From: an uncultured Bacilli bacterium | GTDB lineage: Bacteria > Bacillota_I > Bacilli_A > RF39 > UBA660 | Direction of reading: 5' to 3' | DNA: 64,000 nucleotides | Assembly (NCBI GenBank): GCA_910576925.1 | Contig: CAJTKB010000002.1 | Coordinates: 419 to 64,418, forward strand | Part shown: positions 1 to 45,857 of the stretch, piece by piece | How positions within the stretch are numbered: position 1 is the first letter of the stretch | Layout: each line of letters starts with the position of its first letter | Translations under genes and position numbers: made by a program | The notes under the pieces: model-generated | Seen by the model: the letters and a program-made list of their open reading frames with translations, nothing else | What the model was told of the DNA's origin: nothing | The model's database searches: none

Positions 1-1542
1 TTTAAATATATTATTATCATAAACACTATCTTCTGTTAATAATAACCTACTATACTTACCAGGATTCAATAAAACTTCCCAATAGGCCTTCACAATACTT
101 TTGTTAACTATTCTCTTTAAACTTCTAGCTCCCTCTCCTATTTTATATGCTTCATCTGCTACAGCATTCAAATATCCATCAGTATAGTCAAATAAAACAT
201 TCAAAGTAGCATATTTATTTTTTTCACTTACTAACACACTATAAGTAGAATCAGTTAAAATAGAACGTAGACTCTCTTTTGTATGTTTAGGTAAGATAAT
301 AATATCAGTAATTCTTGACATAAGTTCTCTAGGCATAAGTCCATATTTTACCAAATCTCCACTACTAACTTCTAAATACATTTCACGTTCTACATTTAAA
401 TTTTTGGCATTGTAATCAAAGCCTATTCTTTTATTATCAAGATTTCTATTTTCAGTCAATTTATCAATCACATTAGTAAAAGCACCTGTTGCAAAAAAGG
501 TTAACTTAGAAGTATCAAAATTATAACTTTGATATTTATATTTTATTGTATAAGTATTTCCTTGAATAAATGCTAACAAACTATTAAGTACTGCTTTACC
601 TCCTATATCAGAATTACTATCGCTTCCTTTTTTATCAATCTCATCAAATACAATAATCCCCCTTTGAGCTTTGTCTAAATCACCATCACAAATACGCAAA
701 AGACCCTCTAAAGCTTTTGTAACACTTTCTCCTTCATATCCACTAGCACTAATATTAGCCATATCTACAATAAACATTGGTACATCTAAATACTTACTAG
801 CAACATCACATAACATAGTTTTACCTGTACCAGTATCTTCTATAATTAAACAAGTACTTTTATTAATAGGATCATCTATTAATCTATTTGTAACAATATT
901 AGTAATTACAAATTGCTTTGCTTCTTCTAGTCCAATTATTCTATCATCAAAATACTTTTTCATCTCTCTAACATCAATATATTTAGATTTGTTATCTGAT
1001 TCAGCCTTTTTTATAACTTCATTATTTTCAACATAAGAATCTTCATAAAAACCACTTAATTGTAATAATTTCTTTCTAACCTCTTCCAAAGTTTTACATT
1101 CTAATAATTCTCTAATATAATTATTATTAACAATTGCATTATTAGAATAATCATTGCCAAGATTAAAACTACTTCCATCTTCTAATTCATCATTATATTT
1201 ATTAAATAAACTCTCAAATTCACTATCTACAATTTTTATAGAATCACTTTCAACTAATAAAATACCAATATAACTTTTCTCACTATATTCTTCAAAATAC
1301 TTTTTCTTATTGCCATTATATTTTTCAGATAATTCGCTCATACTAATTGCAAATGCAACTGGCTTATCAATACTATCATATATATTTTCAATATCTTCTG
1401 CTCTTAAATACTCTTTTCCAGTTTCATCAATAAAACAGTCATCAGCAAATATTCCTTCAACTAACATATCTGGCACAAATATAATTATTCTAGTATTAAT
1501 AATATACTTATTCATCAAAATAGCACAAAATTTTTCTTTCAT
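1..1542 (-). CDS. ClpX-like AAA+ ATPase with a ~260-aa unrecognised N-terminal domain. The start is at 1542 and the 3' end runs off the window edge.
   Basis: Hand translation of the minus strand gives a Walker A (EDTGTGKTM), Walker B (GIIVFDEIDK), the ClpX-like motifs SGYEGESV and FFATGAF, and sensor-2 GARSLKRIV. A GGGGG RBS precedes the ATG. There is no zinc-binding N domain. Confidence 0.6.
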   Translation of the reverse strand, partial: MKEKFCAILMNKYIINTRIIIFVPDMLVEGIFADDCFIDETGKEYLRAEDIENIYDSIDKPVAFAISMSELSEKYNGNKKKYFEEYSEKSYIGILLVESDSIKIVDSEFESLFNKYNDELEDGSSFNLGNDYSNNAIVNNNYIRELLECKTLEEVRKKLLQLSGFYEDSYVENNEVIKKAESDNKSKYIDVREMKKYFDDRIIGLEEAKQFVITNIVTNRLIDDPINKSTCLIIEDTGTGKTMLCDVASKYLDVPMFIVDMANISASGYEGESVTKALEGLLRICDGDLDKAQRGIIVFDEIDKKGSDSNSDIGGKAVLNSLLAFIQGNTYTIKYKYQSYNFDTSKLTFFATGAFTNVIDKLTENRNLDNKRIGFDYNAKNLNVEREMYLEVSSGDLVKYGLMPRELMSRITDIIILPKHTKESLRSILTDSTYSVLVSEKNKYATLNVLFDYTDGYLNAVADEAYKIGEGARSLKRIVNKSIVKAYWEVLLNPGKYSRLLLTEDSVYDNNIFK

Positions 1543-1623
1543 ATAATCCCCCACTTAATTACTAATAGTATAGATAAATTAATCTTACTAGTCAATAATA
1601 TATAAAAAATTAGTGTTTTCACA

Positions 1624-2790
1624 CTAATCTCTTATATACAAGTCTCTTGTATATACTTTATCATACACATCTAAAAGATTCTCTTCCATTCTATTAGCAA
1701 TAATAATATCACAAGTACTTTTAAACTCTTCTAGATTAGAAATAACTTTATACCCTTCAAACATATCACCCTTAAAAGTTGGTTCATAAATTACAACATT
1801 TATATTTTTTTCCTTCAAGTTAACTATAATACTTTGTATCGCACTTGATCTAAAATTATCTGAATTAGCCTTCATTGTAAGCCTATAAACACCTACAATA
1901 CTAGGATTTTTTAAAAGTATCATATCTGTAATATGTCTTTTTCTAGTATCATTTGCTTTTACTATTGCCTCTATTAAATTTTCTGGCACATCTTTATAAT
2001 TAGCTAATAACTGTTTAGTATCTTTTGGAAGACAATATCCTCCATATCCAAAGGAAGGATTATTATAATAATCACCTATTCTTGGATCTAATGATACTCC
2101 ATCGATTATATCCTTAGTATTAAGACCTTTTATCTCAGCATATGTATCAAGTTCATTAAAATAAGCCACTCGAAGAGCTAAAAAAGTATTAGCAAATAAT
2201 TTTACTGCTTCAGCTTCAGTAGAATTCATAAATCTAATAGGAATATCCTTTTTTATTGCACCTTCCTTTAATAAATCAGCAAAAACTTCAGCTCTTTTAC
2301 TTCTTTCTCCTACGATAATTCTAGAAGGATATAAATTATCATATAAAGCACTTCCTTCTCTTAAAAATTCTGGTGAAAACATAATATTTTGAATATTATA
2401 TTTTTCTTTCATTTTTTCTATAAAGCCAACAGGAATAGTAGACTTAACAACAATTGTTGTATCAATATCTAAAAAAATCACCTTCTTAATGATATCCTCA
2501 ACACTAGAAGTATCAAAATAATTTAATACATCATCATAATTAGTAGGCGTACTAATAATTATATAACTAGAACCAAGAAAGGCCTCCTTATAATCAAGAG
2601 TCGCCCTTAAATTCAAGGATTTATTTTTCAAATATTCTTTTATATCCTTATCATCAATTGGTGATACCTTTTTATTTATCATATCAACCTTTTCTTCAAC
2701 TATATCATAGCAAACAACCTCATTATTTTGTGCTAACAATATAGAATTAGAAAGGCCAACATATCCTGTACCTGCTACTGCTATTTTCAT
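1624..2790 (-). CDS. ugd: UDP-glucose 6-dehydrogenase
   Basis: N-terminal Rossmann motif GTGYVGLS. The 388-aa length and the overall pattern fit the UDP-glucose/GDP-mannose dehydrogenase family. Confidence 0.8.
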
Positions 2791-7363: not shown

Positions 7364-8227
7364 TTATTTTTTAATAGCTAAATACACTCTTTTTAATAAT
7401 TTCATTTTATATAATGAATATATAACCTTATACTTGATATTATTAGTCATACTTACACTTTTTTTAAAATACATTGTAGCATCTTTGTCTTGTAACATCT
7501 GAAATATTGCAATTCTACAATATATTCTAGCCATATGACTTTTATTCATAATATCACTATACTTATCAGAAATTATAATTAAGGCATCTTCTCCCTTTTT
7601 TGGATTTTTTGTAATACTATCGTTTTGTAAATATACATTATTTAAAACTTTATCTAAATGATAACACTTATACTTACTAGCAAGTCTAATAGCTAAATCC
7701 CAATCCTGAAATCTTGGAAGTTTAGTATCAAATTTAATATTTTCAAATATTTCTCTCTTCCCAAGTATACACTGAGTAGTAATAAAATTCCTATAAAGTA
7801 ATTTATCTAAAATATTATCAGATGCAATATGAGCCTTAGGAACAATAGTACTTTTTTTATTATTTATTCTTTTAAAACTAGAGAATGTCCAAAAAACATT
7901 ATTATTTATCATACAATTGATCTGTTCAGATATTCTATTTTTTTCAGAAGTATCATCGCTATCTTGGAAAGTAATATATTTTCCTTTTGATTTTTCAATA
8001 CCAAAATTTCTAGCTGCATTAGCCCCACTATTTGTATCTAATTTATAATAAACAAGTCTCTCATTATTATATTTTTTTATTACTTCTTCTGTATTATCAG
8101 ATGAACAATCATCAACTATTATAAGCTCTATATTAGAATAACTTTGATTAAGTATAGAATCTATGGCATTTTCTATTATATAACCTCTATTATAAGTAGG
8201 CATTATAACTGATACTAACTCATTCAC
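7364..8227 (-). CDS. glycosyltransferase family 2
   Basis: VSVIMPTYNRGYIIENAIDSILNQSY...LIIVDDCSSDNT is a canonical GT2 pattern. Confidence 0.85.
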   Translation of the reverse strand: MNELVSVIMPTYNRGYIIENAIDSILNQSYSNIELIIVDDCSSDNTEEVIKKYNNERLVYYKLDTNSGANAARNFGIEKSKGKYITFQDSDDTSEKNRISEQINCMINNNVFWTFSSFKRINNKKSTIVPKAHIASDNILDKLLYRNFITTQCILGKREIFENIKFDTKLPRFQDWDLAIRLASKYKCYHLDKVLNNVYLQNDSITKNPKKGEDALIIISDKYSDIMNKSHMARIYCRIAIFQMLQDKDATMYFKKSVSMTNNIKYKVIYSLYKMKLLKRVYLAIKK

Positions 8228-9072
8228 TATCTTTTCCCCACTTTCATTCCAATTATTCTTGCTAGCATATCAAATGGAAATCTAACTAGTACCTTAATAT
8301 TTTTCTCATCGATAGCTCTTTTTAAAACATATGTTGCTAAACTACCTCCAGCCTTATTAGTTCCATATTTATCTAAATAATTATTTTCTTTAAAAAATAT
8401 ACCTGTAAGTCTATATCTATTATATACTTCTTTCAAAGAAAACTTATGAGAATGATAAACAACTGAACTAGCACAATATTTGATTTTATACCCAGCCATA
8501 ATAATCTTATGTGCAATATACATATCTTCATTAGTAGGTAGATTTTTTCTATCATATCCATTAAGCTTATTAAATATATCTCTTCTAATAGCAGAACTGG
8601 CATCAGAAAAGAAAAATGTTTTAAGCCCTAATCTTTCTATATCATCTTTTGAAACTATAAAAGAATCTTTAGGATAATTCTTCTCTCTTGTATATTTTTC
8701 AATTCCATTATCATTAGGAAGTTGTCTAGAATAGGTTGCTACTATATCACTTGTTTCAGTAATATCCTTAGTTAATTCATAAAGCCAATTCTTATCTTTT
8801 ATTATAACATCTTGAGTAATAAAAACCAATATATCAGAAGTACATTTATATGCAGCATTTTCCCTAACTAAGCTATGTGAAAAATCTGTCTTATTAATTT
8901 TTTTATAAGAACAATTATTTTTCTTTAAAAACTCCTCCGTTTTATCACTACTCTCAGTTAAAATATAATTAATTTTATTGATATTAACATTTTCCTGAAA
9001 AAGCAAAGAATTATTTAAACTTTCAATATAACTCGCAGCATTATATAAAGGACATATAATATCTATACTCAT
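8227..9072 (-). CDS. glycosyltransferase (GT2-like)
   Basis: N-terminal IDIICPLYNAASYIE fits a GT-A fold start. The gene sits in the polysaccharide operon. Confidence 0.55.
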   Translation of the reverse strand: MSIDIICPLYNAASYIESLNNSLLFQENVNINKINYILTESSDKTEEFLKKNNCSYKKINKTDFSHSLVRENAAYKCTSDILVFITQDVIIKDKNWLYELTKDITETSDIVATYSRQLPNDNGIEKYTREKNYPKDSFIVSKDDIERLGLKTFFFSDASSAIRRDIFNKLNGYDRKNLPTNEDMYIAHKIIMAGYKIKYCASSVVYHSHKFSLKEVYNRYRLTGIFFKENNYLDKYGTNKAGGSLATYVLKRAIDEKNIKVLVRFPFDMLARIIGMKVGKR

Positions 9073-9158
9073 AAATCTACCTCTTTCTAAAAAAAACTAT
9101 ATGCAAATACTAAATCCGCATATAGTTTTACCATTTTCTTTAGTACTTACTATTTACT

Positions 9159-9821
9159 TTATTTAGCGCCTCTTCCTTGTAATACCGCAATAATTGTTCT
9201 AAAGAAAACTTTAATGTCTAATTTTAAAGATATATTTTTTGCATAGTATGCTTCTAATTCGACTCTCTCTTCATATGTTGTACAACTTCTACCATTGCAA
9301 GCCCACCAACCTGTAAGTCCTGGAAGTACAGATAATACTAAATCCTTCTTATCTTTAAAATATTCAAGTTCTTTTTCCAAAACTGGTCTAGGCCCAATAA
9401 GTGACATTTCGCCTTTTAAGATATTGAAAAGTTGTGGAATTTCATCAAGAGATGTTTTTCTAAGAATTTTACCAAATTTTGTAACTCTTGGATCATTATC
9501 TAATTTATAATTTTTCTTAAACTCTATCATTTGCTCTTCAGTAAAGTATTTAGAAAAATTATCAGCATCACTAACCATTGTTCTAAACTTATAGAGATAT
9601 ATTTCTACTCCATCTTTACCAACTCTCTTATGTTTATAGATAACTGGTCCTTTAGAACTTATCTTTATAAATAATGCTATAACCAAAAATATAGGACTTA
9701 ATATGATTATAGAAACAAATACAATAATAAAATCAATCAATCTTTTAAATTTAACATAAATATCCTTCGAAATTGTAATTTTTTCAGGTACAAGTTCTAA
9801 ACCTAAAGCCTCACTATTCAT
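9159..9821 (-). CDS. initiating sugar phosphotransferase (bacterial sugar transferase family, WbaP/CpsE C-terminal domain type)
   Basis: KRLIDFIIVF...PVIYKHKRVGKDG...FRTM...DEIPQLFNILKGEMSLIGPRP are hallmark motifs of this family. Confidence 0.9.
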   Translation of the reverse strand: MNSEALGLELVPEKITISKDIYVKFKRLIDFIIVFVSIIILSPIFLVIALFIKISSKGPVIYKHKRVGKDGVEIYLYKFRTMVSDADNFSKYFTEEQMIEFKKNYKLDNDPRVTKFGKILRKTSLDEIPQLFNILKGEMSLIGPRPVLEKELEYFKDKKDLVLSVLPGLTGWWACNGRSCTTYEERVELEAYYAKNISLKLDIKVFFRTIIAVLQGRGAK

Positions 9822-10164
9822 CTCTATTCCCCCTTATCAATTAGTGGCTATATTATACCACAAAATTGATAATTTGTAAAGAAAAACAGTAATAATTTAT
9901 TTCATATCAATATTATCACATATCTTTGAAAGTTTTAAAGAACAAAAAATAAACAATAAAATTACACTCAAAACAATTATCGAAAGTATTCCAAATATTT
10001 TAATAATGATAACCTCCTCTATCTGACAACAATATAATTATCATTGTCTTCTACTCTCTACTATTTAAGTATAACATATTTTATAAATTAAAAAACAAAA
10101 TTTTAAAACATTATAAATAAATTTTATATCTATTTATAAAAAAATTTATAGCTATCACTTTTTT

Positions 10165-11145
10165 CTATAACCATACACCAAATATTATTCCTGACATTGC
10201 AAGAACTAGTCCAAATATCCAAAACATTTTTACTATATCTTGCTCTTTCCAACCTAATTTTTCAAAATGATGATGAATAGGAGTCATTAAAAAAACCTTT
10301 CTATGAAATACTTGTACTGCTATTGATTGAATAATAACAGATAAAGTTTCAACAACAAATACACCGGCAACTACTACCAAAGTAAGTTCTCTATGAGTTA
10401 AAATAGCTATGGCACCCATTGTTCCTCCTAAAGTAAGACTACCAGTATCTCCCATAAATATCTTTGCTGGATAAGTATTAAATACTAAAAAACCTAGTAA
10501 ACTTCCACATAAAACTAAAGAAAATATTCCAAGATCCTCATATCCTACCATTAAAGAAATAAGAGCAAAAGCAATAAATGCAATCGCAGAAAGACCACCA
10601 GCTAGTCCATCAAGACCATCAGTCAAATTAACAGCATTACTAGAACCAACTAACACAAGCAAAATAAATATTCCATATATAAAGCCAAGTTCCAAATCAA
10701 TATGAAGTGTTCCAACAGTAAAAGCGGTTTGTCCTCCATTTTTCATATAAATATAGAAAAAAACAATTGCAATTAAGACCTGCATAAATAATTTTTGATA
10801 GGTTGTAAGTCCTTCGTTATTTTTCTTTTTTATTGATAAATAATCATCTAAAAATCCTATTAAAGCATGACCTATAAAAACAATAAATACAATTCCAAGA
10901 TTTGATGTATAAGGAACCTTTTTAGTAACTAAAAGAGAGAGCATAGTTATAAGTGTAGAAAAAATAAAAATTAGTCCCCCCATAGTTGGAGTTCCTTCTT
11001 TTTTTCTATGACTTTCTCCTACAAAGACACTAATTTTTTGACCTATATGCATTTTTTTTAACATTGGTATTAATATAACACCAAGTAAACTAGCAAACAA
11101 AAAGCCAATCATTACTGCAAAAACTGCCTTGGTTAATAATAGCAT
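10165..11145 (-). CDS. mraY: phospho-N-acetylmuramoyl-pentapeptide transferase
   Basis: 326-aa polytopic protein with the DD, NAVNLTDGLDGLA and MGDTGS motifs. Confidence 0.9.
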   Translation of the reverse strand: MLLLTKAVFAVMIGFLFASLLGVILIPMLKKMHIGQKISVFVGESHRKKEGTPTMGGLIFIFSTLITMLSLLVTKKVPYTSNLGIVFIVFIGHALIGFLDDYLSIKKKNNEGLTTYQKLFMQVLIAIVFFYIYMKNGGQTAFTVGTLHIDLELGFIYGIFILLVLVGSSNAVNLTDGLDGLAGGLSAIAFIAFALISLMVGYEDLGIFSLVLCGSLLGFLVFNTYPAKIFMGDTGSLTLGGTMGAIAILTHRELTLVVVAGVFVVETLSVIIQSIAVQVFHRKVFLMTPIHHHFEKLGWKEQDIVKMFWIFGLVLAMSGIIFGVWL

Positions 11146-15658: not shown

Positions 15659-18600
15659 TTAGAAAAGAGAGAGTTGATTAGAATCTGGAAGATCTGCAAG
15701 TATACCCATATCACTCATTTTAGCTATCAAGGTTTGTGATACTTTTCCTCTAGTTTGTACATCTTCTTTACTAATAAAGTTACGCTCCTTACGTTCTTTT
15801 ACAATAGTCGCCGCAACAGTAGTACCAAGTCCATCAATAGTAGAAAATGGTGGTATCAATGTATATTCGTCATCCTCTTTTTTTATAAATTTTGTTGCTT
15901 CACTTTTTTCAAGATCGATATTTGCAAACTTTATACCACGACAAACTGCTTCAAGTGCAATCTTCAAAGTTTCTATAATATTAGTTTCTTTATTAGTAGC
16001 TTCAAATCCTTTATTTTGTAAATCATTAAGTCTCTCTCTTATAGCATCTTCTCCTTTAATCATCGCTTCAATATCAAAATCATCAACTCTAATAGAGAAA
16101 AATGCAGCATAATAATTATATGGTTGATAAAGTTTAAACCAAGCTATACGTATAGCACTCATAACATAAGCACAAGCATGAGCCTTAGGAAACATATACT
16201 TAATCTTATGACAAGACTCTATATACCAATCAGGAATATTAGCCTCTTTCATCATTTGAGCCCAATTCTGCCAAGTAGCAGGATCTTTGGAAGGTTTTCC
16301 TTTACGAACAAACTCCATAATTTTAAAAGCAATCTTTGGTTCCATTCCCCAATTCATCAAGCTAACCATAATATCATCACGACAACCAATAACTTCTTTA
16401 AATGGAACTATTCCTTTTTCAATTAACTCTGAGGCATTCCCAGCCCAAACATCAGTTCCGTGAGAAAGTCCCGATATTTTAACAAGTTCGGAGAAAGTTT
16501 TTGGCTTTGTTTCCTGAAGCATTGCAATAACAAACTTAGTACCAAGCTCAGGAAGTCCCAAAGTACCAGTTGGACACATAATTTGCTCTTCAGTAACCCC
16601 CAAAGCTTCAGGACTAGATAAAAGTGAAAACACCTTAGTATCATCCATAGGAATAGTAGTAACATCAACTCCAGACAAATCCTGAAGCATTCTAAGTACT
16701 GTCGGATCATCGTGTCCTAGAATATCTAGTTTTAATACATCTTGATCAATTGCATGATAATCAAAATGAGTAGTACGCCATTCTGCCGTTACTTCATCTG
16801 CTGGAAATTGAAATGGAGTAAAATCAAAGACATCCATATACTTTGGAATAACTACAATTCCCCCTGGATGCTGTCCTGTTGTTCTCTTAACACCAGTACA
16901 ACCAATAGCAAGTCTTTCCACCTCAGCATTCCTAATATCAACTATACCATGCTCTTCAGCCCAACCTCTAACATAACCAAAAGCTGTTTTTTCAGCAACT
17001 GTACCAATAGTACCAGCTCTATAAACATTATCCTCTCCAAACAACACTTTAGTATAAGCATGCGCACTAGCCTGATTATCACCAGAAAAATTAAGATCTA
17101 TATCAGGAACTTTATCACAATTAAATCCCAAGAAAGTGGCAAAAGGCATATCTTGTCCCTCTTTTCCTAACTTCTCACCACATTTTGGACAAATTTTATC
17201 TGGTAAATCATATCCACTAGCAAGTTCTTTTCCATAAGCTACACCATTCTCATCATTAAATTCAGAATATTTACAATTATAACAAAGATAATGAGCTGGA
17301 AGTGCATTAACTTCAGTTATCCCCATCATACAAGCAACAAAACTTGAACCAACTGAACCACGAGAACCAACTAGATATCCCTCATCATTTGAATGTTTAA
17401 CAAGTTTTTGAGAAATCAAATAAATTACATCAAACCCTCCACCAATAATTCCCTTCAATTCGGATTTAATTCTATCTTCTATATTTTGAGGAAGTGGATT
17501 ACCATACATACTATGTGCCTTATCATATACCATATTACGAACAATTTCACTACAATTTTCTATTTTTGGAGAAAAAGGAATACCACCTGTATCAATTATT
17601 ACTTCAATATCTTGAGCCATATCAAGTATTTTATTCGAGTTTTCTATAACTAATTTTTTTATTAAATTTGAATCATCTAAAAATTTAAAATTTTCTAACA
17701 TTTCTTCAGTAGTTCTCAAATGATTACTTGGAATGTCTTTAATTCCATTACGTGCTAGCGGATGCCTTCCTCCACCTGGTACTTTCTGATTTACAATTAT
17801 CTCCCTATAAATTTTATCATCTCTTTTTATATGATGAACATCTCCTGTTGCCACAATAATTTTTCCAGCTTCCTCTGTCGTCCTAATAATCTTTTTAAGA
17901 TGTTCTGAAAGCTCATACTCATTTGTAAAATCATTACTTTGTATTAAATGATTGTAACATTCTAAAGGTTGAACTTCAACATAATCATAAAATCTAATAA
18001 TATTAGTAAGTTCTTCTTCACTTTTACTTCTAGCTTCTCTAAACACTTCAGACTCATAGCAACCACTTCCAATTAAAATACCATTTCTATTTTTTTCAAT
18101 TTCACTTCGAAGAATTCTAGGTGTCTTATAAAGATATTTAGTATTAGCAAGTGATATTAATCTAAACATATTTTTAAGTCCGATCTTATTTAGTGCCAAA
18201 ATATTTATATGATAACTTTTTCCGTATTTATGAATTTCATCTTTACTAACAAGAGTATCAAGTTGATCCATTCTCTCAATATTACGATTATCGAGCTTTT
18301 TTAACATTTTATGAAAAACTAATGCTGTTCCTTCAGCATCATAATCACCTCTATGATGACAATCTTCATCCCAAGGAACATCATATCTTTTAATAATCGC
18401 AGAAAGTGAATGTCTAGAGTAATTATTATCAAGAGTACGTGAAAGCTCTAATGTATCAATTACTGGATTAGTATATTCACCTAAATTATACTTTCTATAG
18501 CACATTTCCAAAAATGAAACATCAAACTTTGCATTGTGAGCCACCATAGGTAAATCCCCAAACCATTCAATAAATCTTTTTATAGCATTTTCTTCATTAT

Positions 18601-20101
18601 CTTTATCTTCTAACATTTCATTAGTAATATTAGTAACATCAGTAATTGTCTGCTTTAACGGATTAGGTGGTTTAATTAATTCATCATATTTTTCAATTAT
18701 TTCCCCATTATGTATTTTAACAGCACCTATTTCTATAATAGAATCAGCTCCACCAGCATTAAATCCAGTAGTCTCAAAATCAAAAACTACATATGTCTGT
18801 TCTAATAAATTCTTATTATTAGGCCTAATTACAATATCAACAGTATCATCAATCAAAGTTAATTCTGTTCCGTATATAACCTTGAATGGTTCTTCTCCAT
18901 CTTTTAATTTCTTATTATGACCTTTAACAAGATTAAAAACATGAGGAAAAGACTGACAACCATTATGATCTGTTATTGCAATACCCTTGTGTCCCCATTT
19001 AATAGCCTGTTTTACCAATTCCTCTTCATCAGCCACACCATCCATTTGACTCATTTTAGTATGAGTATGCAATTCTACTCTTTTTATAGGACTAGTATCA
19101 ACAATTTCCTCCTCCTCATCATGCTCTACTGCCATTATATCTCTCGCATTAAGCACAAGTTCTCTACTAAAAGAATCATCTTTAGTAGCACCTCTAATCT
19201 TTAGCCATTTACCACTTTTTAACTCTTTACAAAGTCTAATATATTCATCATTATCTCTTACAAATACCTTACAATAAATACTATCTGTATAATCAGTAAC
19301 TTTTAAAGTAATAATCTTAAAATCACTTTTACTAGATTCAAAATACTCTACTCCAAATATTTGAGCCTCTACTACTATATTATTATCAACTCCTAAAATT
19401 GTTTTAATTTTTATAGGTTCATCTTTAATAGCAAAGCCTATAATACTATTAGGATCAGTCTCTTTTTTTCTATACTTTTGTTTATCCTTAGAAACATCAT
19501 TATTAACTTGTTGAGTATTAGAATTACTTTCTTTTGAAGAAGAATTTTTCTTAATATTATTTATACTCTCTTTTAAATTTTCCTCTATTTTTTCTTTAAT
19601 AGAATTCTCCTTTTTTAATATAACAGAAATATCTTTTCTAAATCCTAATCTATAAAACTCGCTTTTTATAACTTCCAAAGCCTGATTAAGTTTTAATTCC
19701 TCTACATTATTATCAGCAACTAAAGTGAAATTATCATTTTTTATCTCTAAAGACTCTAAATAAATATTTGGTACAGTTAAAATATCTTTCGCTTTTTTTA
19801 ATACAAAAGGATATAACTCTTTAAATCCTTCAATCTCCATATTTTCAATTTCAAAAGATATTGTAATATTATCAATATCATCAGAAAAATTATACTTTTT
19901 TTCTTCCAATTCTTCCAAAGCCTCAATACAAATAGGCTTATCTTTTTCTATAAATATTTGACAATCTCTTCTTTTATTAAATAATTTTATTTTTATTAAC
20001 CTACAGTCCTCTAGTAAATTATAATGGTCTCTAGTAAAATCAATTCTTTCTAATAATAGTCCCATTTTCTCATCCATTATAATTACCTCCCTGTTATCCA
20101 A
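15659..20101 (-). CDS. polC: DNA polymerase III PolC-type (Gram-positive replicative polymerase)
   Basis: 1480-aa protein with an internal 3'-5' exonuclease domain (VVFDFETTGF, HNAKFDVSFL), a PHP domain and a polymerase core. Confidence 0.95.
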   Translation of the reverse strand: MDNREVIIMDEKMGLLLERIDFTRDHYNLLEDCRLIKIKLFNKRRDCQIFIEKDKPICIEALEELEEKKYNFSDDIDNITISFEIENMEIEGFKELYPFVLKKAKDILTVPNIYLESLEIKNDNFTLVADNNVEELKLNQALEVIKSEFYRLGFRKDISVILKKENSIKEKIEENLKESINNIKKNSSSKESNSNTQQVNNDVSKDKQKYRKKETDPNSIIGFAIKDEPIKIKTILGVDNNIVVEAQIFGVEYFESSKSDFKIITLKVTDYTDSIYCKVFVRDNDEYIRLCKELKSGKWLKIRGATKDDSFSRELVLNARDIMAVEHDEEEEIVDTSPIKRVELHTHTKMSQMDGVADEEELVKQAIKWGHKGIAITDHNGCQSFPHVFNLVKGHNKKLKDGEEPFKVIYGTELTLIDDTVDIVIRPNNKNLLEQTYVVFDFETTGFNAGGADSIIEIGAVKIHNGEIIEKYDELIKPPNPLKQTITDVTNITNEMLEDKDNEENAIKRFIEWFGDLPMVAHNAKFDVSFLEMCYRKYNLGEYTNPVIDTLELSRTLDNNYSRHSLSAIIKRYDVPWDEDCHHRGDYDAEGTALVFHKMLKKLDNRNIERMDQLDTLVSKDEIHKYGKSYHINILALNKIGLKNMFRLISLANTKYLYKTPRILRSEIEKNRNGILIGSGCYESEVFREARSKSEEELTNIIRFYDYVEVQPLECYNHLIQSNDFTNEYELSEHLKKIIRTTEEAGKIIVATGDVHHIKRDDKIYREIIVNQKVPGGGRHPLARNGIKDIPSNHLRTTEEMLENFKFLDDSNLIKKLVIENSNKILDMAQDIEVIIDTGGIPFSPKIENCSEIVRNMVYDKAHSMYGNPLPQNIEDRIKSELKGIIGGGFDVIYLISQKLVKHSNDEGYLVGSRGSVGSSFVACMMGITEVNALPAHYLCYNCKYSEFNDENGVAYGKELASGYDLPDKICPKCGEKLGKEGQDMPFATFLGFNCDKVPDIDLNFSGDNQASAHAYTKVLFGEDNVYRAGTIGTVAEKTAFGYVRGWAEEHGIVDIRNAEVERLAIGCTGVKRTTGQHPGGIVVIPKYMDVFDFTPFQFPADEVTAEWRTTHFDYHAIDQDVLKLDILGHDDPTVLRMLQDLSGVDVTTIPMDDTKVFSLLSSPEALGVTEEQIMCPTGTLGLPELGTKFVIAMLQETKPKTFSELVKISGLSHGTDVWAGNASELIEKGIVPFKEVIGCRDDIMVSLMNWGMEPKIAFKIMEFVRKGKPSKDPATWQNWAQMMKEANIPDWYIESCHKIKYMFPKAHACAYVMSAIRIAWFKLYQPYNYYAAFFSIRVDDFDIEAMIKGEDAIRERLNDLQNKGFEATNKETNIIETLKIALEAVCRGIKFANIDLEKSEATKFIKKEDDEYTLIPPFSTIDGLGTTVAATIVKERKERNFISKEDVQTRGKVSQTLIAKMSDMGILADLPDSNQLSLF

Positions 20102-30115: not shown

Positions 30116-31909
30116 TTAATCACCCATTCCTTCAAAACTCCCACTTAAACCACTATCAAAGGTTAAACTATGTTTCGTCATTATTACATCTTTGTACCCA
30201 AATTTAGTTTCTACAGATATGCTATCTCCTGGAACAAAACTAGGATCTCCATTATAGTTTCCTGTAACTTTATATTTTTTGTCTATATTTAAGTAGTAGT
30301 TAGCAGTATCTTGCAACCAATTATTACTAGCATTAAAATATTCTGTAAAGTCTAATGATAAAGTATCTCCTGTTTGTTTATTGTTACTAATAGTTTTTTC
30401 TAATATAGGTGGTGTATCAAAAACAAAGGCATTAAGATGTACTGTTATAACATCTCCTACATTACCAGCAAATTTAATGTAGGCTAACCAGTTATTATAA
30501 TCAATGAGCTCCGCATTTCCATTTCCACTATAGCTAAAAGATTGATTATTGTTATTTCTTGCTATTCTCTTATTAAATTTAAACCATACATATTCTTCAT
30601 TTGATGTCAAAGTATAGGCTTGATTTAATACATCTTCTTGTATAGTTGAAGTCATGTTATAATTGTCTATATCTTTAATTTTAACTTTATTTAGTATGGT
30701 TTTACTTTCGTATTTTACATCCTCTTTTAGTTCTTTTTTTGTTATAGTATCGATAGTTTCTAAATTTATAGAATCAAATACTACTCGATTATTTCTTGAA
30801 ATGCTAAATTTTCTTTGATATTTTTCTCCAACCATATATGAAAAGATAGTTTGTAAATATTTTAATAATTCTGTATGTCTTAAATGCAAATTACCTATAT
30901 TCCCAAATGATAGTTGAAAATCATAACCATATATTTTCTTTAAATACTTATTTAAATCTGTATTAGTCCAATTTGTTCCATTATGATACAAAAAAGTCCC
31001 ATCACTGATTAATGTTAAATTTACAAGTTTTGCCATCAAACTTTGACCATTAAGAGTAGTATTTCCATTTGTATCATTGCTCCAATCTTTTAAATAAAAA
31101 TATCCCATAGAAACATATTCTATTCCATTTTCTTCTGTCAAAGCCCCAATATATGGCTTTATGATACAGTCGTCAGTCAAATATTTAACAAGACCTGTAG
31201 GATTTAGTGGATTGAAAATATTTTCGTAATTACTTAAATTTATTTTACAATCATTAATTGGCGCGCTTGCAAGTAATAAATCTAACTCTTCATTTACTGT
31301 GAAAGATACTAAATCATTGCCTTCATAAATCTGCGAAACTCCAAAATCTATATTTGCTATTCTTAATCTTCTATTTGGATGCTCGATTTTATTAATTTTA
31401 ATCTCTAATGATTTTATAGTAATTTCTTCTTCAAAAATATTTTGGTATATATTTTTAGTGTTATTCTTAATTGGGATTATGAGTGTATTATTGTCCTCAA
31501 ATGTAAAAATAATATCAAAATCTTGTGAAACATTATTTTCAAAGTAAATTGTAATTCCAGAGGATAATATATTTTGATCACTGCTATTCGTTATATTTAA
31601 GGTAGCATCCTCTATATTTTCAAATGTATTCTTACTTATAAGTCCTGCATTATCACCAATTATATTGTAATTTGGAAGAATAAATCCACCATCTAATAGA
31701 GTATAATTTTCTTCTAAGCTAGCATAATTTTTAATTTTTTTAGTAGAACCTAAAAGGTTATCAGGTATACTAATTCTTTCTAGTGGAAAAGAAGTTGTAA
31801 CAATATAATTGCTCATATCTTTTTCATTATAAATCACCTCTACATAACCTTTTATTTCTCTTGTATCAGATTTTATTGCATTTTTAAAACTTTCACTTAC
31901 TGTTTCCAT
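30116..31909 (-). CDS. phage tail protein (Tal/endopeptidase-position tail tip protein)
   Basis: 597 aa, lying second after the tape measure gene. Called by position only. Confidence 0.45.
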   Translation of the reverse strand: METVSESFKNAIKSDTREIKGYVEVIYNEKDMSNYIVTTSFPLERISIPDNLLGSTKKIKNYASLEENYTLLDGGFILPNYNIIGDNAGLISKNTFENIEDATLNITNSSDQNILSSGITIYFENNVSQDFDIIFTFEDNNTLIIPIKNNTKNIYQNIFEEEITIKSLEIKINKIEHPNRRLRIANIDFGVSQIYEGNDLVSFTVNEELDLLLASAPINDCKINLSNYENIFNPLNPTGLVKYLTDDCIIKPYIGALTEENGIEYVSMGYFYLKDWSNDTNGNTTLNGQSLMAKLVNLTLISDGTFLYHNGTNWTNTDLNKYLKKIYGYDFQLSFGNIGNLHLRHTELLKYLQTIFSYMVGEKYQRKFSISRNNRVVFDSINLETIDTITKKELKEDVKYESKTILNKVKIKDIDNYNMTSTIQEDVLNQAYTLTSNEEYVWFKFNKRIARNNNNQSFSYSGNGNAELIDYNNWLAYIKFAGNVGDVITVHLNAFVFDTPPILEKTISNNKQTGDTLSLDFTEYFNASNNWLQDTANYYLNIDKKYKVTGNYNGDPSFVPGDSISVETKFGYKDVIMTKHSLTFDSGLSGSFEGMGD

Positions 31910-31919
31910 TTAAACACCT

Positions 31920-32300
31920 CTAATACTCTATAAAATTCATTGTAGTAGCACTTCTTTTAATAATTTTATAGTTTGTTGGATCAACATATTTTACTTTTCC
32001 ATCGAGTGGTCCAGCATAAACCTTTTTAACTACTCTTTTGCTATGATTGTCAGTAAATTTTAAATAAAAATAGTCTACATCATATAATGACTGTAACAAA
32101 TCTGTTTCTTCGCCAGTTAATCCTGACCAACCACACAAAACTTTTGCTCTATTTCTTCGTACTATATCTCTATGAAGATATCCCAAAGAATCTAAATGAG
32201 ATTTTTCTTCATGTGTGTATGTTGGATTATAATTATCTGATTCTACTGTTGGTAATGCAAACCAATTATTATTATCAAAACTTGCTTCTAAAAATGCCAT
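31920..32300 (-). CDS. phage distal tail-position protein
   Basis: 126-aa ORF immediately after the tape measure gene. Confidence 0.35.
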   Translation of the reverse strand: MAFLEASFDNNNWFALPTVESDNYNPTYTHEEKSHLDSLGYLHRDIVRRNRAKVLCGWSGLTGEETDLLQSLYDVDYFYLKFTDNHSKRVVKKVYAGPLDGKVKYVDPTNYKIIKRSATTMNFIEY

Positions 32301-32304
32301 TTTC

Positions 32305-34719
32305 TCAACTCCTTACAACTGTTGTAGATAGTTGTTGTCTATTTCTTTCATCTTCTAAAGGTTTAAATAATGCTCGTGCTATTTCTGTGGTATCTATGTT
32401 AAGAACTGCACACATATTGGATAAAGATAAAATATTTTTATTTAAATCAATTAATAGACTTATCATTTCATTACTTGCTCCCTCTTCCCTCACTATTTGT
32501 CTGATTAAGTCTTCTGGTGCTTCTAAGTTTCTACCATGTTTCTGATCTCCTAAAATTGCTGCAAATTGTGCATTTGGCGGTATTACTGCTCCTTTAGCAA
32601 GATATGGTATTTGTGGTACAGATATAGTATTAATCAATCCTTTAAATGGTTTTGCTCCTAAAATATCAATATTTTTTATCTTAGTTAATGCTGAATTGAT
32701 ACCCTTAAATGGTATTGTTATTGTTTTATTAATTCCTGAAATTAAACCATTTATCACTAATTTCAATCCATTCAAAATACCATCTTTAATACCATCAAAT
32801 ATTTTTCCACCTGCTGAAAATACATTTTTCACTGCTTGCCAGGCATTAGCGAATGTATCTCTAAACCAAGATGCTACATTATTGCCAAAAATATTCTTAA
32901 TGCTTGACCATAAACTTCCAAAAAAGTTTAAAACGTTATCTTTGAGGCTTTGAATCCCATTAATCAATCCTTGAATAAGATAAGTCCCCATTTCAGCTGC
33001 TAATGTGCTAGGACTATGTATACCAAAAAAATTAAGTATAGCCTTCCATAAAGCGTCAAAAGCTCCTACTACCAAATCAATAGCCGCGGTAATACCTACA
33101 GCCAATCCTTTCATCAAGTCTAGTGTTATTCCAATATAATCAATATTCGCTATATAATCTATTATCGCTGTTATAATTTTACTTCCTAGTTCTCTCCAGT
33201 CAACAGATTGTATTTGCTTTGTTATATGTTCCCATAACTGTTTTGTACCATCACTAAGTTTTTTAGCAACAGATCCCCAATCTATTGCTAAAAGCATTGT
33301 TCCAATACCTGAAATAGCATTCCAGATTGTGTCAAAAATATTAATTGCTAATTGTCCCCACTCAATATTTGTAATAAAATCGCTAATTCCTTTCCCTAAA
33401 TTATTCCAATCTACTGCTTTTATAGCATCAGCAATAGCTCTTGTTATTCCTGTTCCTAATTGGCTGAATTTAGTTCCTAGTAAAGAAAAGTCTAGTTCAT
33501 TAATAAATCCATTAAATACTTGGACTGTATTTTGCATTCCTGCACTGATTTTATCTGTTAATTTCACTATATCAAATGAAACTAAAGCATTATTAATACT
33601 AGAAGCTATTTTTTGACCTACACCAAAAAAATCTCCTTGTGAGATTAATTTTTTGATTTCATTTAGATAATCTAGTAATTTTCCACTTTGCTCTATTTCT
33701 CCACTAAAATCAAGGCTAGGTATTTCTCCTTCACTTGCTCCTCCAGATGTATTGTTTTCATTATCATTTAAATTTTCTATTTCATCTATACTAGATAGAC
33801 CATTCTTAGCACTCTTGGCATTTTTGCCTAAATCTTGATAAGCTTTCGATTGTTCATATATGCTTTTAGCTCCATTTTTCGCTTGTGTAGCTGTTTGCCC
33901 AAATAATCCTGATACAAAAGTTGCTATCTGCCCTGTGATGCTAGATAAAGCAGTCATTAAATTGTTTAACGCTGGAAGGACATAATTATAAATAGGTGCG
34001 AATGCAGTTAATAAATTAACTTTTATTTGATTTAGGCTAGAAGCAAATTGAGAGTTAGAATTTAGCACTCCTATTAGACCACTTGACAATTTACTCAAAC
34101 CTGAGCTTAAAACATTAAAAACCAGTGCCCCTGTTATTAATCCTGTTATTCTCTTACCTAATTGACCAACTTTTTTATTTAAAGAATTTAATTGATTATT
34201 AATTGATTTGAATGGTTTTGTCTTAGAAAAAACTGATAATAAAGTTGTTCCCAATTTCTTTGCTTTTATATTAGCTTTATCTAAACTTTTAGAAAATTCT
34301 TCGCTAGAAGTATCTTTCATTTCATTTTTTAATTCATTAGCCTTCTTTTTAGATGAATCTAATTTACTTTCTGCTAATGCTAATTGCTTTTGTAGTTGTT
34401 TTACTTCCTCTGTGTTTTGTGGACTAAATTTAATATCTTCAATTTTACTAGATAGTTCATTTGCTTTTGATTTTAAGATATCAATTCTTTTTTCTGTTTC
34501 CACTGCATCAGTATCAAACGAATTTATTCTCCTTGCACTTTTATCAGCGCTTGAAGTATCTCCATTTTTTACAAACTTAGAATAATTTGATTGTTCTTGA
34601 TTTATAGAAACATCAATTTCTATTTTCTTTTTTTCTAGTTCTTCTAGTTCTTTTTCTGCTCTTTTCAGTTCTGCTTCAAAGGACTTTAGGCTTGCTGGCG
34701 TTTTGTTTCCTGATGCCAA
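32305..34719 (-). CDS. tail tape measure protein
   Basis: 804 aa with an N-terminal coiled coil, a Gly/Ala/Ile-rich low-complexity C-terminal half and membrane-like segments. Its position follows the chaperone pair. Confidence 0.8.
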   Translation of the reverse strand: MASGNKTPASLKSFEAELKRAEKELEELEKKKIEIDVSINQEQSNYSKFVKNGDTSSADKSARRINSFDTDAVETEKRIDILKSKANELSSKIEDIKFSPQNTEEVKQLQKQLALAESKLDSSKKKANELKNEMKDTSSEEFSKSLDKANIKAKKLGTTLLSVFSKTKPFKSINNQLNSLNKKVGQLGKRITGLITGALVFNVLSSGLSKLSSGLIGVLNSNSQFASSLNQIKVNLLTAFAPIYNYVLPALNNLMTALSSITGQIATFVSGLFGQTATQAKNGAKSIYEQSKAYQDLGKNAKSAKNGLSSIDEIENLNDNENNTSGGASEGEIPSLDFSGEIEQSGKLLDYLNEIKKLISQGDFFGVGQKIASSINNALVSFDIVKLTDKISAGMQNTVQVFNGFINELDFSLLGTKFSQLGTGITRAIADAIKAVDWNNLGKGISDFITNIEWGQLAINIFDTIWNAISGIGTMLLAIDWGSVAKKLSDGTKQLWEHITKQIQSVDWRELGSKIITAIIDYIANIDYIGITLDLMKGLAVGITAAIDLVVGAFDALWKAILNFFGIHSPSTLAAEMGTYLIQGLINGIQSLKDNVLNFFGSLWSSIKNIFGNNVASWFRDTFANAWQAVKNVFSAGGKIFDGIKDGILNGLKLVINGLISGINKTITIPFKGINSALTKIKNIDILGAKPFKGLINTISVPQIPYLAKGAVIPPNAQFAAILGDQKHGRNLEAPEDLIRQIVREEGASNEMISLLIDLNKNILSLSNMCAVLNIDTTEIARALFKPLEDERNRQQLSTTVVRS

Positions 34720-40252: not shown

Positions 40253-41115
40253 TTCAATACCTCCACATCAATATTGAGTTGATTGTATCCATAATCATCT
40301 ACTACATTATAAGCTTTTAATATTTTATATTTAGTATTAGTGTTAAGTACGGCTTCACTCTCTTCTATATTTTTAGTCACAAAACAATTTGTTCCTTTCT
40401 TTATGTATGTATTTAATTTTACTACATTATCTTTAAAAATGCTATTATCAGTTAAACTTACACTCATAAATCCTTTATTAGTTATTATTTTGCCAATATT
40501 TTCATTTATTTTAGATGAACCGTTTTCAAATTCTTTTTTTGCTCTTTCACGAGATATACTTATGCCAAATTCTTCTTTTAAATAATCCTCTCCTACAAAT
40601 CTAGATGCTTTTACATCACAATCTAATTTGTTTTTAGAAATTACATTCTGCAACATTTCCTTAGTTTTCCTTTGCTCAAAATTCATTTCTAATTCAGAAT
40701 TTCTTAAGCAATTATTTATACCCATAGCATAATCAGTTGCTATAAATCCATTATTATAATCATATAACCTTTCTTCTTGCTCTTTTGTAATATTTTGTTT
40801 TAAAGACATTTCGTTAAACGTATCATTATCAAGCTGATTATAATCATTTTCATTAAATGTCTTTTGATTATCAATTTCTTTTTTATGCTCAATAGGAGTA
40901 GCTAAATCTTCTTTTACTTTCAATTCAGCTTTCTTTTGCTCTAAAGATTTCTTCTTTTGAAATAATTCGTCTATTCTTTTAGCAATATCAATTTGTTTTG
41001 TATTGAATTTTCTGCTTTCTTTCATCGCAGTTGCTAAGTCTTGCCCTTCTTTAATAAAAATACGACGTCCGCCTACTGTACGCCATACGCCACCTATATC
41101 ATCCATTTTTATCAC
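40249..41115 (-). CDS. ADP-ribosyltransferase-like domain protein (head-associated)
   Basis: The C-terminal half has a candidate Arg, an STS-like GFMSVSLT and an acidic EESE pair, resembling the R / S-T-S / E-x-E ART triad. The gene overlaps gp7 by 4 bp. Confidence 0.45.
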   Translation of the reverse strand: MIKMDDIGGVWRTVGGRRIFIKEGQDLATAMKESRKFNTKQIDIAKRIDELFQKKKSLEQKKAELKVKEDLATPIEHKKEIDNQKTFNENDYNQLDNDTFNEMSLKQNITKEQEERLYDYNNGFIATDYAMGINNCLRNSELEMNFEQRKTKEMLQNVISKNKLDCDVKASRFVGEDYLKEEFGISISRERAKKEFENGSSKINENIGKIITNKGFMSVSLTDNSIFKDNVVKLNTYIKKGTNCFVTKNIEESEAVLNTNTKYKILKAYNVVDDYGYNQLNIDVEVLK

Positions 41116-42260
41116 TTCCTTTTGACTACTCGTTCTCTAGCAAAATCTCTATGTAATCCATTATCTTTTAAGAACTTTGTATATCGAGGTAAAAACTTTT
41201 GTTCTTTTTTCTTCCACTTTTTGTAATTTTCTTCATTACCTAGTTGTTTAAAAACATCTTGTTTAGTTCTACATTTTCTTATGTATCTTTCTTTGATTCT
41301 TTGCTGTTCTTCTAACTCTACTTGTATTTTGTTATCTCCATAATCAAAATATTCTGATTTAGGTTTATCTATTCCAATAAAAAATGGCCAAAATTTGTGT
41401 CTACAATTAACTCCTCCGAGTCCTAAAATATCTCCATATCCTGTTGCTTCGTAAAAATTCTCATATTCATCATCAGAACCATCTAACTTATAAATCTTTC
41501 CTTGCCAAGAATAATGATTTGAAAAAGGTACTTTCCCATCTCCTAGTCTAGCTCCTAAATGTGAAGATACTTCTACATATTCAGCACCTAACTCTTTTGT
41601 TATCTGTTCTGCACCTTTATTATGAGTTTGATAGATAGCTGTTAACATATCACGTCTTACTACACTTTCTAAAGTCATTTGATAGATTGTTCTATCTTTT
41701 CTTTTATATGTAGCTCCTTTAATACCATCATCTACCATTTTCTCTATCGCTCTAGTAATTGCAGTATTATAGTCGTATATTCCTGTTCCGATTTCTAATC
41801 TTGCTTGATTTAATGCATTCATATATGCTTTTTTGGTACTTTCTATTGCTTTAGTGTTGATCATTTTAAATATTTCTTTAGTATCAGTATAAGAATTATT
41901 AATTGCGTGATTTATTGTTTTTGATTGTAGCAAAGTATTATAGGCTATATTAATAGCTCCTTTATCGTTTAAAAAATCTATTCTTTCTTTTGAAATACTT
42001 CCATATCCCGCTTCTTTTAATAACCTTTTTATTTCTTTTTCTGATATATAGCTATATTTTGAAATGATTCTAATTGCTTCTTTATCTAATGCTCCTATTT
42101 CTTCTAATTTCTTAAAGTACCAATCCAGACTATTTCTAATTGTTACATCTTCATTTACAGCAAAAAAACTTGCTATCTTAAGTAACAAGTCGTGTTCTAT
42201 ATTTTGATATATTTCTATGATAGGTTGCGCTAGAGCTTTTAATTCTTCATCTGTTTTCAT
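41112..42260 (-). CDS. minor head protein, SPP1 gp7 / Phage_Mu_F family
   Basis: 382 aa, lying after the portal gene. The family pattern fits. Confidence 0.65.
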   Translation of the reverse strand: MKTDEELKALAQPIIEIYQNIEHDLLLKIASFFAVNEDVTIRNSLDWYFKKLEEIGALDKEAIRIISKYSYISEKEIKRLLKEAGYGSISKERIDFLNDKGAINIAYNTLLQSKTINHAINNSYTDTKEIFKMINTKAIESTKKAYMNALNQARLEIGTGIYDYNTAITRAIEKMVDDGIKGATYKRKDRTIYQMTLESVVRRDMLTAIYQTHNKGAEQITKELGAEYVEVSSHLGARLGDGKVPFSNHYSWQGKIYKLDGSDDEYENFYEATGYGDILGLGGVNCRHKFWPFFIGIDKPKSEYFDYGDNKIQVELEEQQRIKERYIRKCRTKQDVFKQLGNEENYKKWKKKEQKFLPRYTKFLKDNGLHRDFARERVVKRK

Positions 42261-45655: not shown

Positions 45656-45857
45656 AATATCATCCTTTCTGATTTGGTTTCTTTGGTTGCAGAGAATAGA
45701 ATTGCACTATTATCTTTAGCAATGCAAGCTAATGTGTTACTGTTACACTACTCTGCGATAAAACAAAAAGAGCATTTCTACTCTCTATAAAGTGAATATG
45801 TGTTTTTTATGAGAATTCTGTAATTTCTCACAATATAATTATCTCAAAAAAAACGTG

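Follow-up and report, generated by a model that had tools for sequence, protein, structure and literature searches.

The 64,000-nucleotide stretch of DNA analyzed here (the window; positions 419 to 64,418 of contig CAJTKB010000002.1 in assembly GCA_910576925.1 of an uncultured Bacilli bacterium) contains at its left end, on the minus strand, most of a gene for an AAA+ ATPase. This gene probably encodes a hexameric ClpX-family AAA+ unfoldase, in which the C4 zinc-binding N-domain of ClpX is replaced by a lineage-specific alpha/beta domain of 121 residues, carried on a flexible linker. Judging from sequence comparisons, the protein most likely functions as an unfoldase coupled to ClpP, in which recognition is mediated by a domain specific to the lineage. 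This architecture is unreported, and the N-domain represents an undefined family, while the machine itself is familiar and not of a new kind. There is no support for a capsule-specific function, which the original prediction, made from the letters of the window, had considered for a gene located next to a polysaccharide operon.

In the window, the gene is a single open frame of 514 codons without a stop, beginning with an ATG at 1542-1540, whereas the remaining two frames of the same strand are riddled with stops over positions 1-1542. A protein of 535 residues (P0001), present on 10 contigs, including a 124.5-kb contig of the metagenome-assembled genome (MAG) GCA_948686165.1, is 100% identical to residues 1-514 as read in the window; therefore, the window misses only 21 C-terminal residues, and the full-length gene was recovered as one intact open reading frame (ORF). 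The GC content of the gene is 26%, similar to that of the adjacent genes, and the public names of the protein are either "AAA family ATPase" only or "ClpX" (JGI). The start of the gene is defined by the following features:

1-1542, minus strand: 5' part of the coding sequence, residues 1-514 of the 535-residue ClpX-family AAA+ protein P0001; an open frame, with the last 21 codons and the stop lying off the left edge of the window.
1547-1552, minus strand: Shine-Dalgarno-like GGGGGA, 4-5 nt upstream of the ATG, read from the sequence (GGGGG run at 1548-1552).

An in-frame stop is located four codons upstream of the ATG; therefore, no extra N-terminal sequence, and no hidden zinc finger, can be encoded upstream. 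This stop and the Shine-Dalgarno-like run bear on the trivial explanation of the unusual architecture as an artefact, i.e., a canonical ClpX or HslU (ClpY) with a wrong start, or two genes joined by a frameshift. Nothing was found in favor of such an artefact, and its probability is next to nil, given also that residues 1-190 contain no CxxC pair and that HslU models reach 46 bits only. A misplaced start of a canonical ClpX/HslU/ClpY is ruled out by the upstream stop and by the score of 168 bits vs. the 359 bits required of ClpX, and an N-terminal region representing a frameshifted separate gene is ruled out because over 150 homologues, taken from independent assemblies, share the same order of N-domain, linker and AAA+ module.

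By sequence, the C-terminal 345 residues are a ClpX-type AAA+ module. The protein matches the Pfam families AAA_2, AAA and ClpB_D2-small (437-491), and its best NCBIfam matches are two ClpX models (E-values of 2e-49 and 1.5e-43, residues 172-510). The top 15 matches among sequences of the Protein Data Bank (PDB) are ClpX or mitochondrial CLPX, with the best E-value of 3e-37. The full-length AlphaFold2 model has a mean predicted local distance difference test score (pLDDT) of 83; when this model was compared to PDB using Foldseek, all top 50 chains were ClpX, with target-normalised template modelling scores of 0.72-0.87. The complete set of ClpX-type motifs that had been reported for this protein was found (GTGKT at residue 238, GYEGESV at 268, FDEIDK at 299, FFATGAF at 349 and GARSLKRIV at 471), and the residues K241/T242, D300/E301, R410 and R473 align with K125, D184/E185, R307 and R370 of E. 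coli ClpX. The functional elements of the module are distributed as follows:

343-972, minus strand: large AAA+ subdomain, residues 191-400 (Pfam AAA_2/AAA, ClpX hidden Markov models, alignments with ClpX from PDB, Foldseek).
817-840, minus strand: Walker A EDTGTGKT, residues 235-242, with the E235 codon GAA at 838-840; the family consensus is GPTGSGKT.
730-741, minus strand: pore-1 loop G268-Y269-E270-G271, from the alignment with E. coli ClpX (GYVG).
631-657, minus strand: Walker B IIVFDEIDK, residues 296-304 (D300, E301), from the motif match and the alignment.
379-459, minus strand: ClpP-docking-type loop, residues 362-388, with IGF at 418-426, from the alignment with E. coli ClpX residues 268-270.
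313-315, minus strand: arginine finger R410 (R307 of E. coli ClpX), invariant in alignments A1 and A3.
67-342, minus strand: small AAA+ subdomain, residues 401-492, with sensor-2 G471-A472-R473 at 124-132 (Pfam ClpB_D2-small, alignment).
1-66, minus strand: start of the C-terminal beta region, residues 493-514 of 493-535, which aligns with the C-terminal strands of ClpX (full-length model).

The IGF tripeptide of the docking loop is present (R372-I373-G374-F375), I373-G374-F375 aligns with I268-G269-F270 of E. coli ClpX, and the loop is of ClpX-like length; its residues 371-388 have low pLDDT in the full-length model, which fits a flexible loop. The RKH loop, located in ClpX at the top of the pore, is deleted, and the pore-2 loop is shorter than that of E. 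coli ClpX by about six residues.

The homology to ClpX begins at about residue 172, and the region preceding it is about 175-190 residues long. Residues 1-190 are acidic (pI 4.5) and include three cysteines and no histidine; therefore, there is no C4 zinc motif, in agreement with the earlier statement that the ClpX zinc-binding N-domain is missing. In the alignment-based AlphaFold2 model of residues 1-135 (pLDDT 91.8), the folded part ends at about residue 121; it opens with a long beta-hairpin/small-barrel portion, after which come helices and two further strand pairs, and the full-length model shows the same fold. The region had been described as an acidic domain of about 260 residues without known motifs: the acidity and the lack of a known family hold, whereas a single domain of that size is replaced by a 121-residue domain and a linker of about 70 residues:

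1180-1542, minus strand: N-terminal domain, residues 1-121, beta-hairpin/small-barrel and alpha/beta portion; P24 is invariant, and G30, D39 and Y45 are nearly invariant.
973-1179, minus strand: linker, residues 122-190, with low-confidence segments 122-135 and 167-185 around a helical hairpin at 140-163 (full-length model, alignment A1).

Searched alone, the N-domain has no match in Pfam, its model has no convincing match among PDB folds and no zinc-ribbon match, and there is no convincing match among viral folds (BFVD). Taken as modelled, it is a compact alpha/beta domain of no described family.

A word-indexed search returned 671 relatives. Among the best 120 of these, nearly all open with the N-domain signature YYGILMxxxxIxxxIYLFxPxxLIEG and have lengths of 520-740 residues, because the linker varies (from ~70 to ~300 residues in the relatives). 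When a profile of the N-domain only was searched against 1.84 billion representative proteins, 281 protein clusters matched at E ≤1e-3 and 136 at E ≤1e-10, and the match starts at residues 1-10 in essentially all matches listed. The majority of the full-length matches carry the ClpX-like module, and in about 11 of the best 150 its place is taken by a SpoVK/CbbX/EccA-type AAA+ module; these proteins, P0135, P0167, P0200 and P0231 among them, have a GNPGTGKT Walker A, the AAA_lid_6 domain and scores of 184-199 bits to the spore_V_K model. The N-domain, a conserved module found in no more than these ~280 clusters of uncultured gut Bacilli, is therefore common to two unrelated AAA+ motor classes. 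The short N-domain matches look like fragments truncated at contig ends. Searches of the literature on ClpX, on the loss of its zinc-binding domain and its paralogs, on ClpP, RF39 and Mollicutes yielded no account of the family or the N-domain.

Motif frequencies were calculated for 161 ClpX-like members of the family. Sensor-2 (G[AG]R) is found in all of them, the G[YF]xG pore loop in 159, Walker B ([FL]DE[IL]D) in 155 and the GPTGSGKT form of Walker A in 134. The pore-1 loop is represented mostly by GYVG (114 members), followed by GYIG (15), GYKG (14) and GYEG (6). An arginine aligned with R307 of E. coli ClpX is present across the family. At the IGF position, 157 of the 161 members have a tripeptide of the form [ILMVA]G[FY], and the RKH loop is deleted in 158, the window protein included, with a median of seven gap positions across residues 218-240 of E. 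coli ClpX.

Several additional proteins and loci were noted in the course of these searches. Second, divergent copies of the family are located near the main copy or in tandem with it in L012 (16438-17916, 492 residues) and L032 (1375-3654, 759 residues), and each has the N-domain and an IGF/IGY loop. In L025 (~7800-11053), the family gene appears to be broken into two neighbouring ORFs: one covers the N-domain part, and the other, of 512 residues, begins in the linker. This points to a frameshift, to a pseudogene or to misassembly of that MAG. The protein P0215 (468 residues) has the N-domain and linker followed by a LytR_C domain, with no AAA+ module. Over its first 400 residues, P0215 shares 82% identity with an ordinary family protein of L049; therefore, the fusion may not be real but the product of chimeric assembly, and it was not used as a link to LCP (LytR-CpsA-Psr) proteins. 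A MAG labelled Bdellovibrionota encodes a ClpX-like protein of 822 residues (L056, 9950-12418) with a C-terminal extension of about 450 residues, which has neither the zinc-binding domain nor the family N-domain and has no bearing on the present finding.

Scanning one genome per GTDB species, we found 44 family loci; the other matches were canonical or unrelated ClpX-like genes. Nearly all carriers are MAGs labelled "uncultured Bacilli bacterium", from the gut of rabbit, human (Hadza), reindeer, roe deer and mouse, and from rumen, and a few bear the names Tenericutes, Mycoplasmatota or Erysipelotrichaceae. Such labels are compatible with RF39, RFN20 and ML615J-28, uncultured orders that have small genomes and are relatives of Mollicutes (PMC10868615). 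The family was not found in viral contigs, in which matches cover the AAA+ part only, with identity of at most 34%. A phage origin was rejected, as viral contigs yield generic ClpX-like AAA+ proteins without the N-domain and BFVD yields no fold match.

To describe the neighbourhoods, ORFs from 59 loci were clustered, and counts were made on 52 non-redundant loci. The family gene resides in at least five distinct, internally conserved housekeeping neighbourhoods:

yqeY-NUDIX-gene-rplS-lepB
gene-hisS-aspS
gene-methyltransferase-rpoB-rpoC
mraY...ftsW-(sigma factor)-gene-flavoproteins
SDR-gene-unknowns

No gene family among the clustered ORFs accompanies the gene throughout, i.e., no conserved operon partner was found. 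The gene is usually single-copy per locus, with a second copy nearby in two genomes (L012 and L032). At least one of ftsW, LCP, VanZ or ugd is located within four genes in about a dozen of the 52 loci, and about 40 loci have no ugd, LCP, VanZ, FtsW, flippase or Bac_transf gene within that distance. It should also be noted that in the genome encoding P0009 (L065, 7369-12905), two small Bac_transf genes are located between GyrB/ParE-type and GyrA/ParC-type topoisomerase genes, just downstream of the family gene.

In the proposed mechanism, the hexamer would dock on ClpP via its IGF loops and feed unfolded substrates to it. The N-domain, held above the pore by the linker, would replace the zinc-binding domain in choosing substrates or adaptors, and the client set would differ from that of ClpX, with ssrA-type recognition via RKH loops being absent. 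The coupling to ClpP is suggested by the conservation of IGF across the family; as far as is known, ClpX relatives that function independently of ClpP, e.g., yeast Mcx1, have lost this loop.

Several observations weigh against this reading, and they are given here together with the alternative explanations on which they bear. The scores to the two ClpX models are 168.5 bits vs. the cut-off of 359 for NF003745 and 149.4 bits vs. 370.75 for TIGR00382; the family member P0029 reaches 200.9 bits. Identity is ~30% to ClpX of E. coli and ~30% to ClpX of an Erysipelotrichales MAG, whereas these two are 51% identical to each other. Because the score is far below the cut-off, identity is ~30% and the RKH loop is gone, the protein is not a ClpX equivalog; it is ClpX-like in the residues that define the mechanism, and we name it a ClpX-family (ClpX-like) unfoldase.

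Two substitutions in the motor also weigh against the main reading. Walker A of the window protein, EDTGTGKT, has a glutamate for the first glycine, which is unique among the 161 members, and the pore-1 loop GYEG keeps the tyrosine and has a glutamate for the valine of GYVG; therefore, the ATPase or the grip may be weakened in this ortholog. In the extreme case, these substitutions would cripple ATP binding or substrate grip, so that in this species the motor is degenerate and the protein is a scaffold, an adaptor or the product of a gene being lost. Consistent with this, the close relatives P0002 and P0003 (79-80% identical) retain a glycine at the first position of Walker A (GDTGTGKT), and the root-to-tip distance of the P0001-P0004 clade is somewhat longer than the median (0.81 vs. 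0.72). Such degeneration is nevertheless quite improbable, given an uninterrupted ORF whose product shows 100% identity among the 10 contigs, which represent several samples. Furthermore, the glycines closest to the Walker A lysine (G238 and G240) are unchanged, the Lys/Thr of Walker A, the DE of Walker B, the arginine finger and sensor-2 are kept, and GYEG is also found in P0005 and P0212, outside the P0001-P0004 clade.

The partner protease is another point of difficulty for the ClpP-coupled unfoldase. ClpP was not found by tblastn in 895 kb of family loci and the window, a small sample per genome. It has been reported absent from Mollicutes (PMC8138137), to which the carrier lineages are related (PMC10868615).

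The remaining difficulties come from the locus, on which the suggestion of a specialised paralog serving as a partner of the capsule locus was based. The upstream neighbour is ugd, on the same strand at the distance of 81 bp, as confirmed from the ORF list:

1624-2790, minus strand: ugd, UDP-glucose 6-dehydrogenase, upstream neighbour across an 81-bp gap (ORF list; Pfam UDPG_MGDP_dh domains on the same gene in L001).

Contrary to the earlier description, the same-strand run of genes continues past the ClpX-like gene: an LCP gene follows 97 bp after it, and then VanZ, both in the same orientation and beyond the window. The order in the MAG is PBP, mraY, nine polysaccharide genes ending in ugd, the ClpX-like gene, the LCP ligase gene, VanZ, two opposite-strand genes and ftsW, and the same gene order is found at the P0002 and P0003 loci. 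P0004 (59% identity) is located between ugd and a GT2 gene, and P0005 (41% identity) adjoins LCP and VanZ in a different gene order; the adjacency to ugd, LCP and VanZ is confined to this genus and two more distant members. No terminator-like site was found between ugd, the ClpX-like gene and the LCP gene, and promoter-like hexamers in both flanking gaps occur no more often than in shuffled sequence.

These observations can be read in favor of a ClpP-independent specialised unfoldase or adaptor for envelope polysaccharide assembly, which would remodel or extract, e.g., the LCP ligase or a flippase. The position of the gene on one strand between ugd and LCP with VanZ, with short gaps and no terminator-like site, the similar placements of P0004 and P0005, the adjacency of a related clade to ftsW/mraY, and the failure to find ClpP in the 895 kb searched all agree with such a role. 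We still regard it as unlikely. In about 40 of the 52 loci, the tested envelope genes are absent within four genes, and rplS-lepB, hisS-aspS and rpoB-rpoC contexts are found instead; the IGF tripeptide, kept in nearly all members, would be expected to decay without ClpP, as in relatives such as yeast Mcx1; and promoter-like hexamers are present in both gaps, although at chance frequency. The adjacency to ugd, LCP and VanZ is a weak hint of a cell-envelope link, and not a conserved partnership.

In a neighbour-joining tree, P0001-P0004 nest in the clade that holds all five proteins of the mraY...ftsW-adjacent loci, and the divergent second-copy paralogs fall elsewhere; the trees were built without support values, which is a further caveat. 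The simplest reading is that the gene is an ordinary family member of its genus, residing in a remnant of the division/cell-wall (dcw) cluster. The polysaccharide operon looks like an insertion between mraY and the ClpX-like gene, because the closest clade adjoins ftsW/mraY; with the operon inserted into a dcw remnant, the capsule adjacency is probably positional and not functional. Thus, the comparison of neighbourhoods yields varied housekeeping syntenies in place of a conserved capsule partnership, and the tree places the gene with the ftsW/mraY clade, apart from the second copies, which does not favor a specialised capsule paralog.

A broader speculation, which appears rather unlikely, combines the two motor classes with the envelope hint. 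Under this scenario, the N-domain, as a targeting module specific to the lineage, would direct ClpX-like and SpoVK/CbbX-like motors of small-genome gut Bacilli to one structure, most plausibly the cell-wall/division machinery. Through regulated unfolding or proteolysis, the ClpX-like member in this sublineage would then control how envelope glycopolymers are assembled (LCP ligase, capsule operon).

The rest of the window contains, among other genes, a prophage-like block at approximately 22000-62700. No Pfam match was found for two large ORFs of this block (804 and 597 residues, 30116-34719). Its recognizable genes, and a polymerase gene elsewhere in the window, are:

43655-45037, minus strand: large terminase, prophage-like block.
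42265-43668, minus strand: SPP1-type portal, prophage-like block.
41112-42260, minus strand: minor capsid protein 2, prophage-like block.
45687-45757, minus strand: tRNA, prophage-like block.
60219-61181, plus strand: Fic/RhuM protein, prophage-like block.
61335-62714, plus strand: serine recombinase, prophage-like block.
15659-20101, minus strand: PolC-type DNA polymerase III alpha subunit, 1480 residues, with PHP, exonuclease, pol3 alpha and finger domains (domain matches).

PolC, the long ORFs in genetic code 11 and the GC content of 21-30% fit a low-GC Firmicutes/Bacilli genome. The prophage at ~22-62.7 kb, some 20 kb away from the gene, and the variable, sensor-like N-terminal domain raise the question of an anti-phage defence ATPase, and there is a weak PADLOC match to IetA (E-value of 3e-4, 18 bits), confined to the P-loop region. 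This match is generic AAA+ similarity, an effector gene that could serve as a partner is missing, and none of the viral contigs searched contains the family. Furthermore, the gene shows conserved housekeeping synteny, usually with one copy per locus; a role in defence is extremely improbable.

ClpX is among the best-understood unfolding machines, in which adaptors and substrates are as a rule delivered through the zinc-binding domain. Uncultured small-genome gut Bacilli have kept the motor and the ClpP-docking loop, whereas both the RKH loop and the zinc-binding domain are gone, and a compact orphan domain has been acquired. If the proposed function is true, this is a natural example of rewired substrate selection by ClpXP. 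It would also provide a domain family that awaits definition and annotation, and a way to approach proteostasis in organisms that are represented by metagenomes only.

The closest known family, and the best match by sequence and predicted fold, is bacterial ClpX (NF003745/TIGR00382; PDB 6WSG, 8E91). The two have in common one AAA+ ring module, with large and small subdomains and C-terminal strands that correspond to each other, Walker A and B, the arginine finger, sensor-2, a pore-1 loop of the form G-Y-x-G and IGF loops that are similar in length. They differ in the N-terminal part, which in ClpX is a C4 zinc-binding domain that dimerises and binds adaptors and substrates, and here is an unrelated domain of 121 residues with a variable linker; in addition, the RKH loop is deleted here, the pore-2 loop is about six residues shorter, and the score is below half of the equivalog cut-off. 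Mitochondrial CLPX and yeast Mcx1 are likewise ClpX motors with diverged N-terminal and loop regions, and mitochondrial CLPX is found among the PDB matches by sequence and fold (9DVY, 9YKX), over shorter stretches and with E-values of ~1e-26. Human CLPX differs from the family described here in keeping the zinc-binding domain, and Mcx1, unlike this IGF-keeping family, is not known to have either a ClpP partner or the IGF loop.

HslU (ClpY), another AAA+ unfoldase of the HCLR clade, likewise has no zinc-binding domain. The window protein reaches only 46.3 bits vs. the 362-bit cut-off for HslU, over three short stretches, and the I-domain insertion of HslU is absent from it; furthermore, HslU docks HslV through its C-terminus and not through an IGF loop. 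According to the description of ClpI of Actinomycetota (PMC10149685), ClpI resembles the present family in being a lineage-restricted, uncharacterised class of Clp unfoldases with an atypical N-terminal region, defined bioinformatically; the difference is that ClpI is from Actinomycetota and was catalogued with ClpB and ClpC, whereas the family described here is ClpX-like and from Bacilli. Finally, some SpoVK/CbbX/EccA-type ATPases carry the same N-domain in the same group of organisms (P0135, P0167 and P0200). They belong to another AAA+ clade, marked by the GNPGTGKT Walker A and AAA_lid_6, and the window protein, being ClpX-like, is not of this type.

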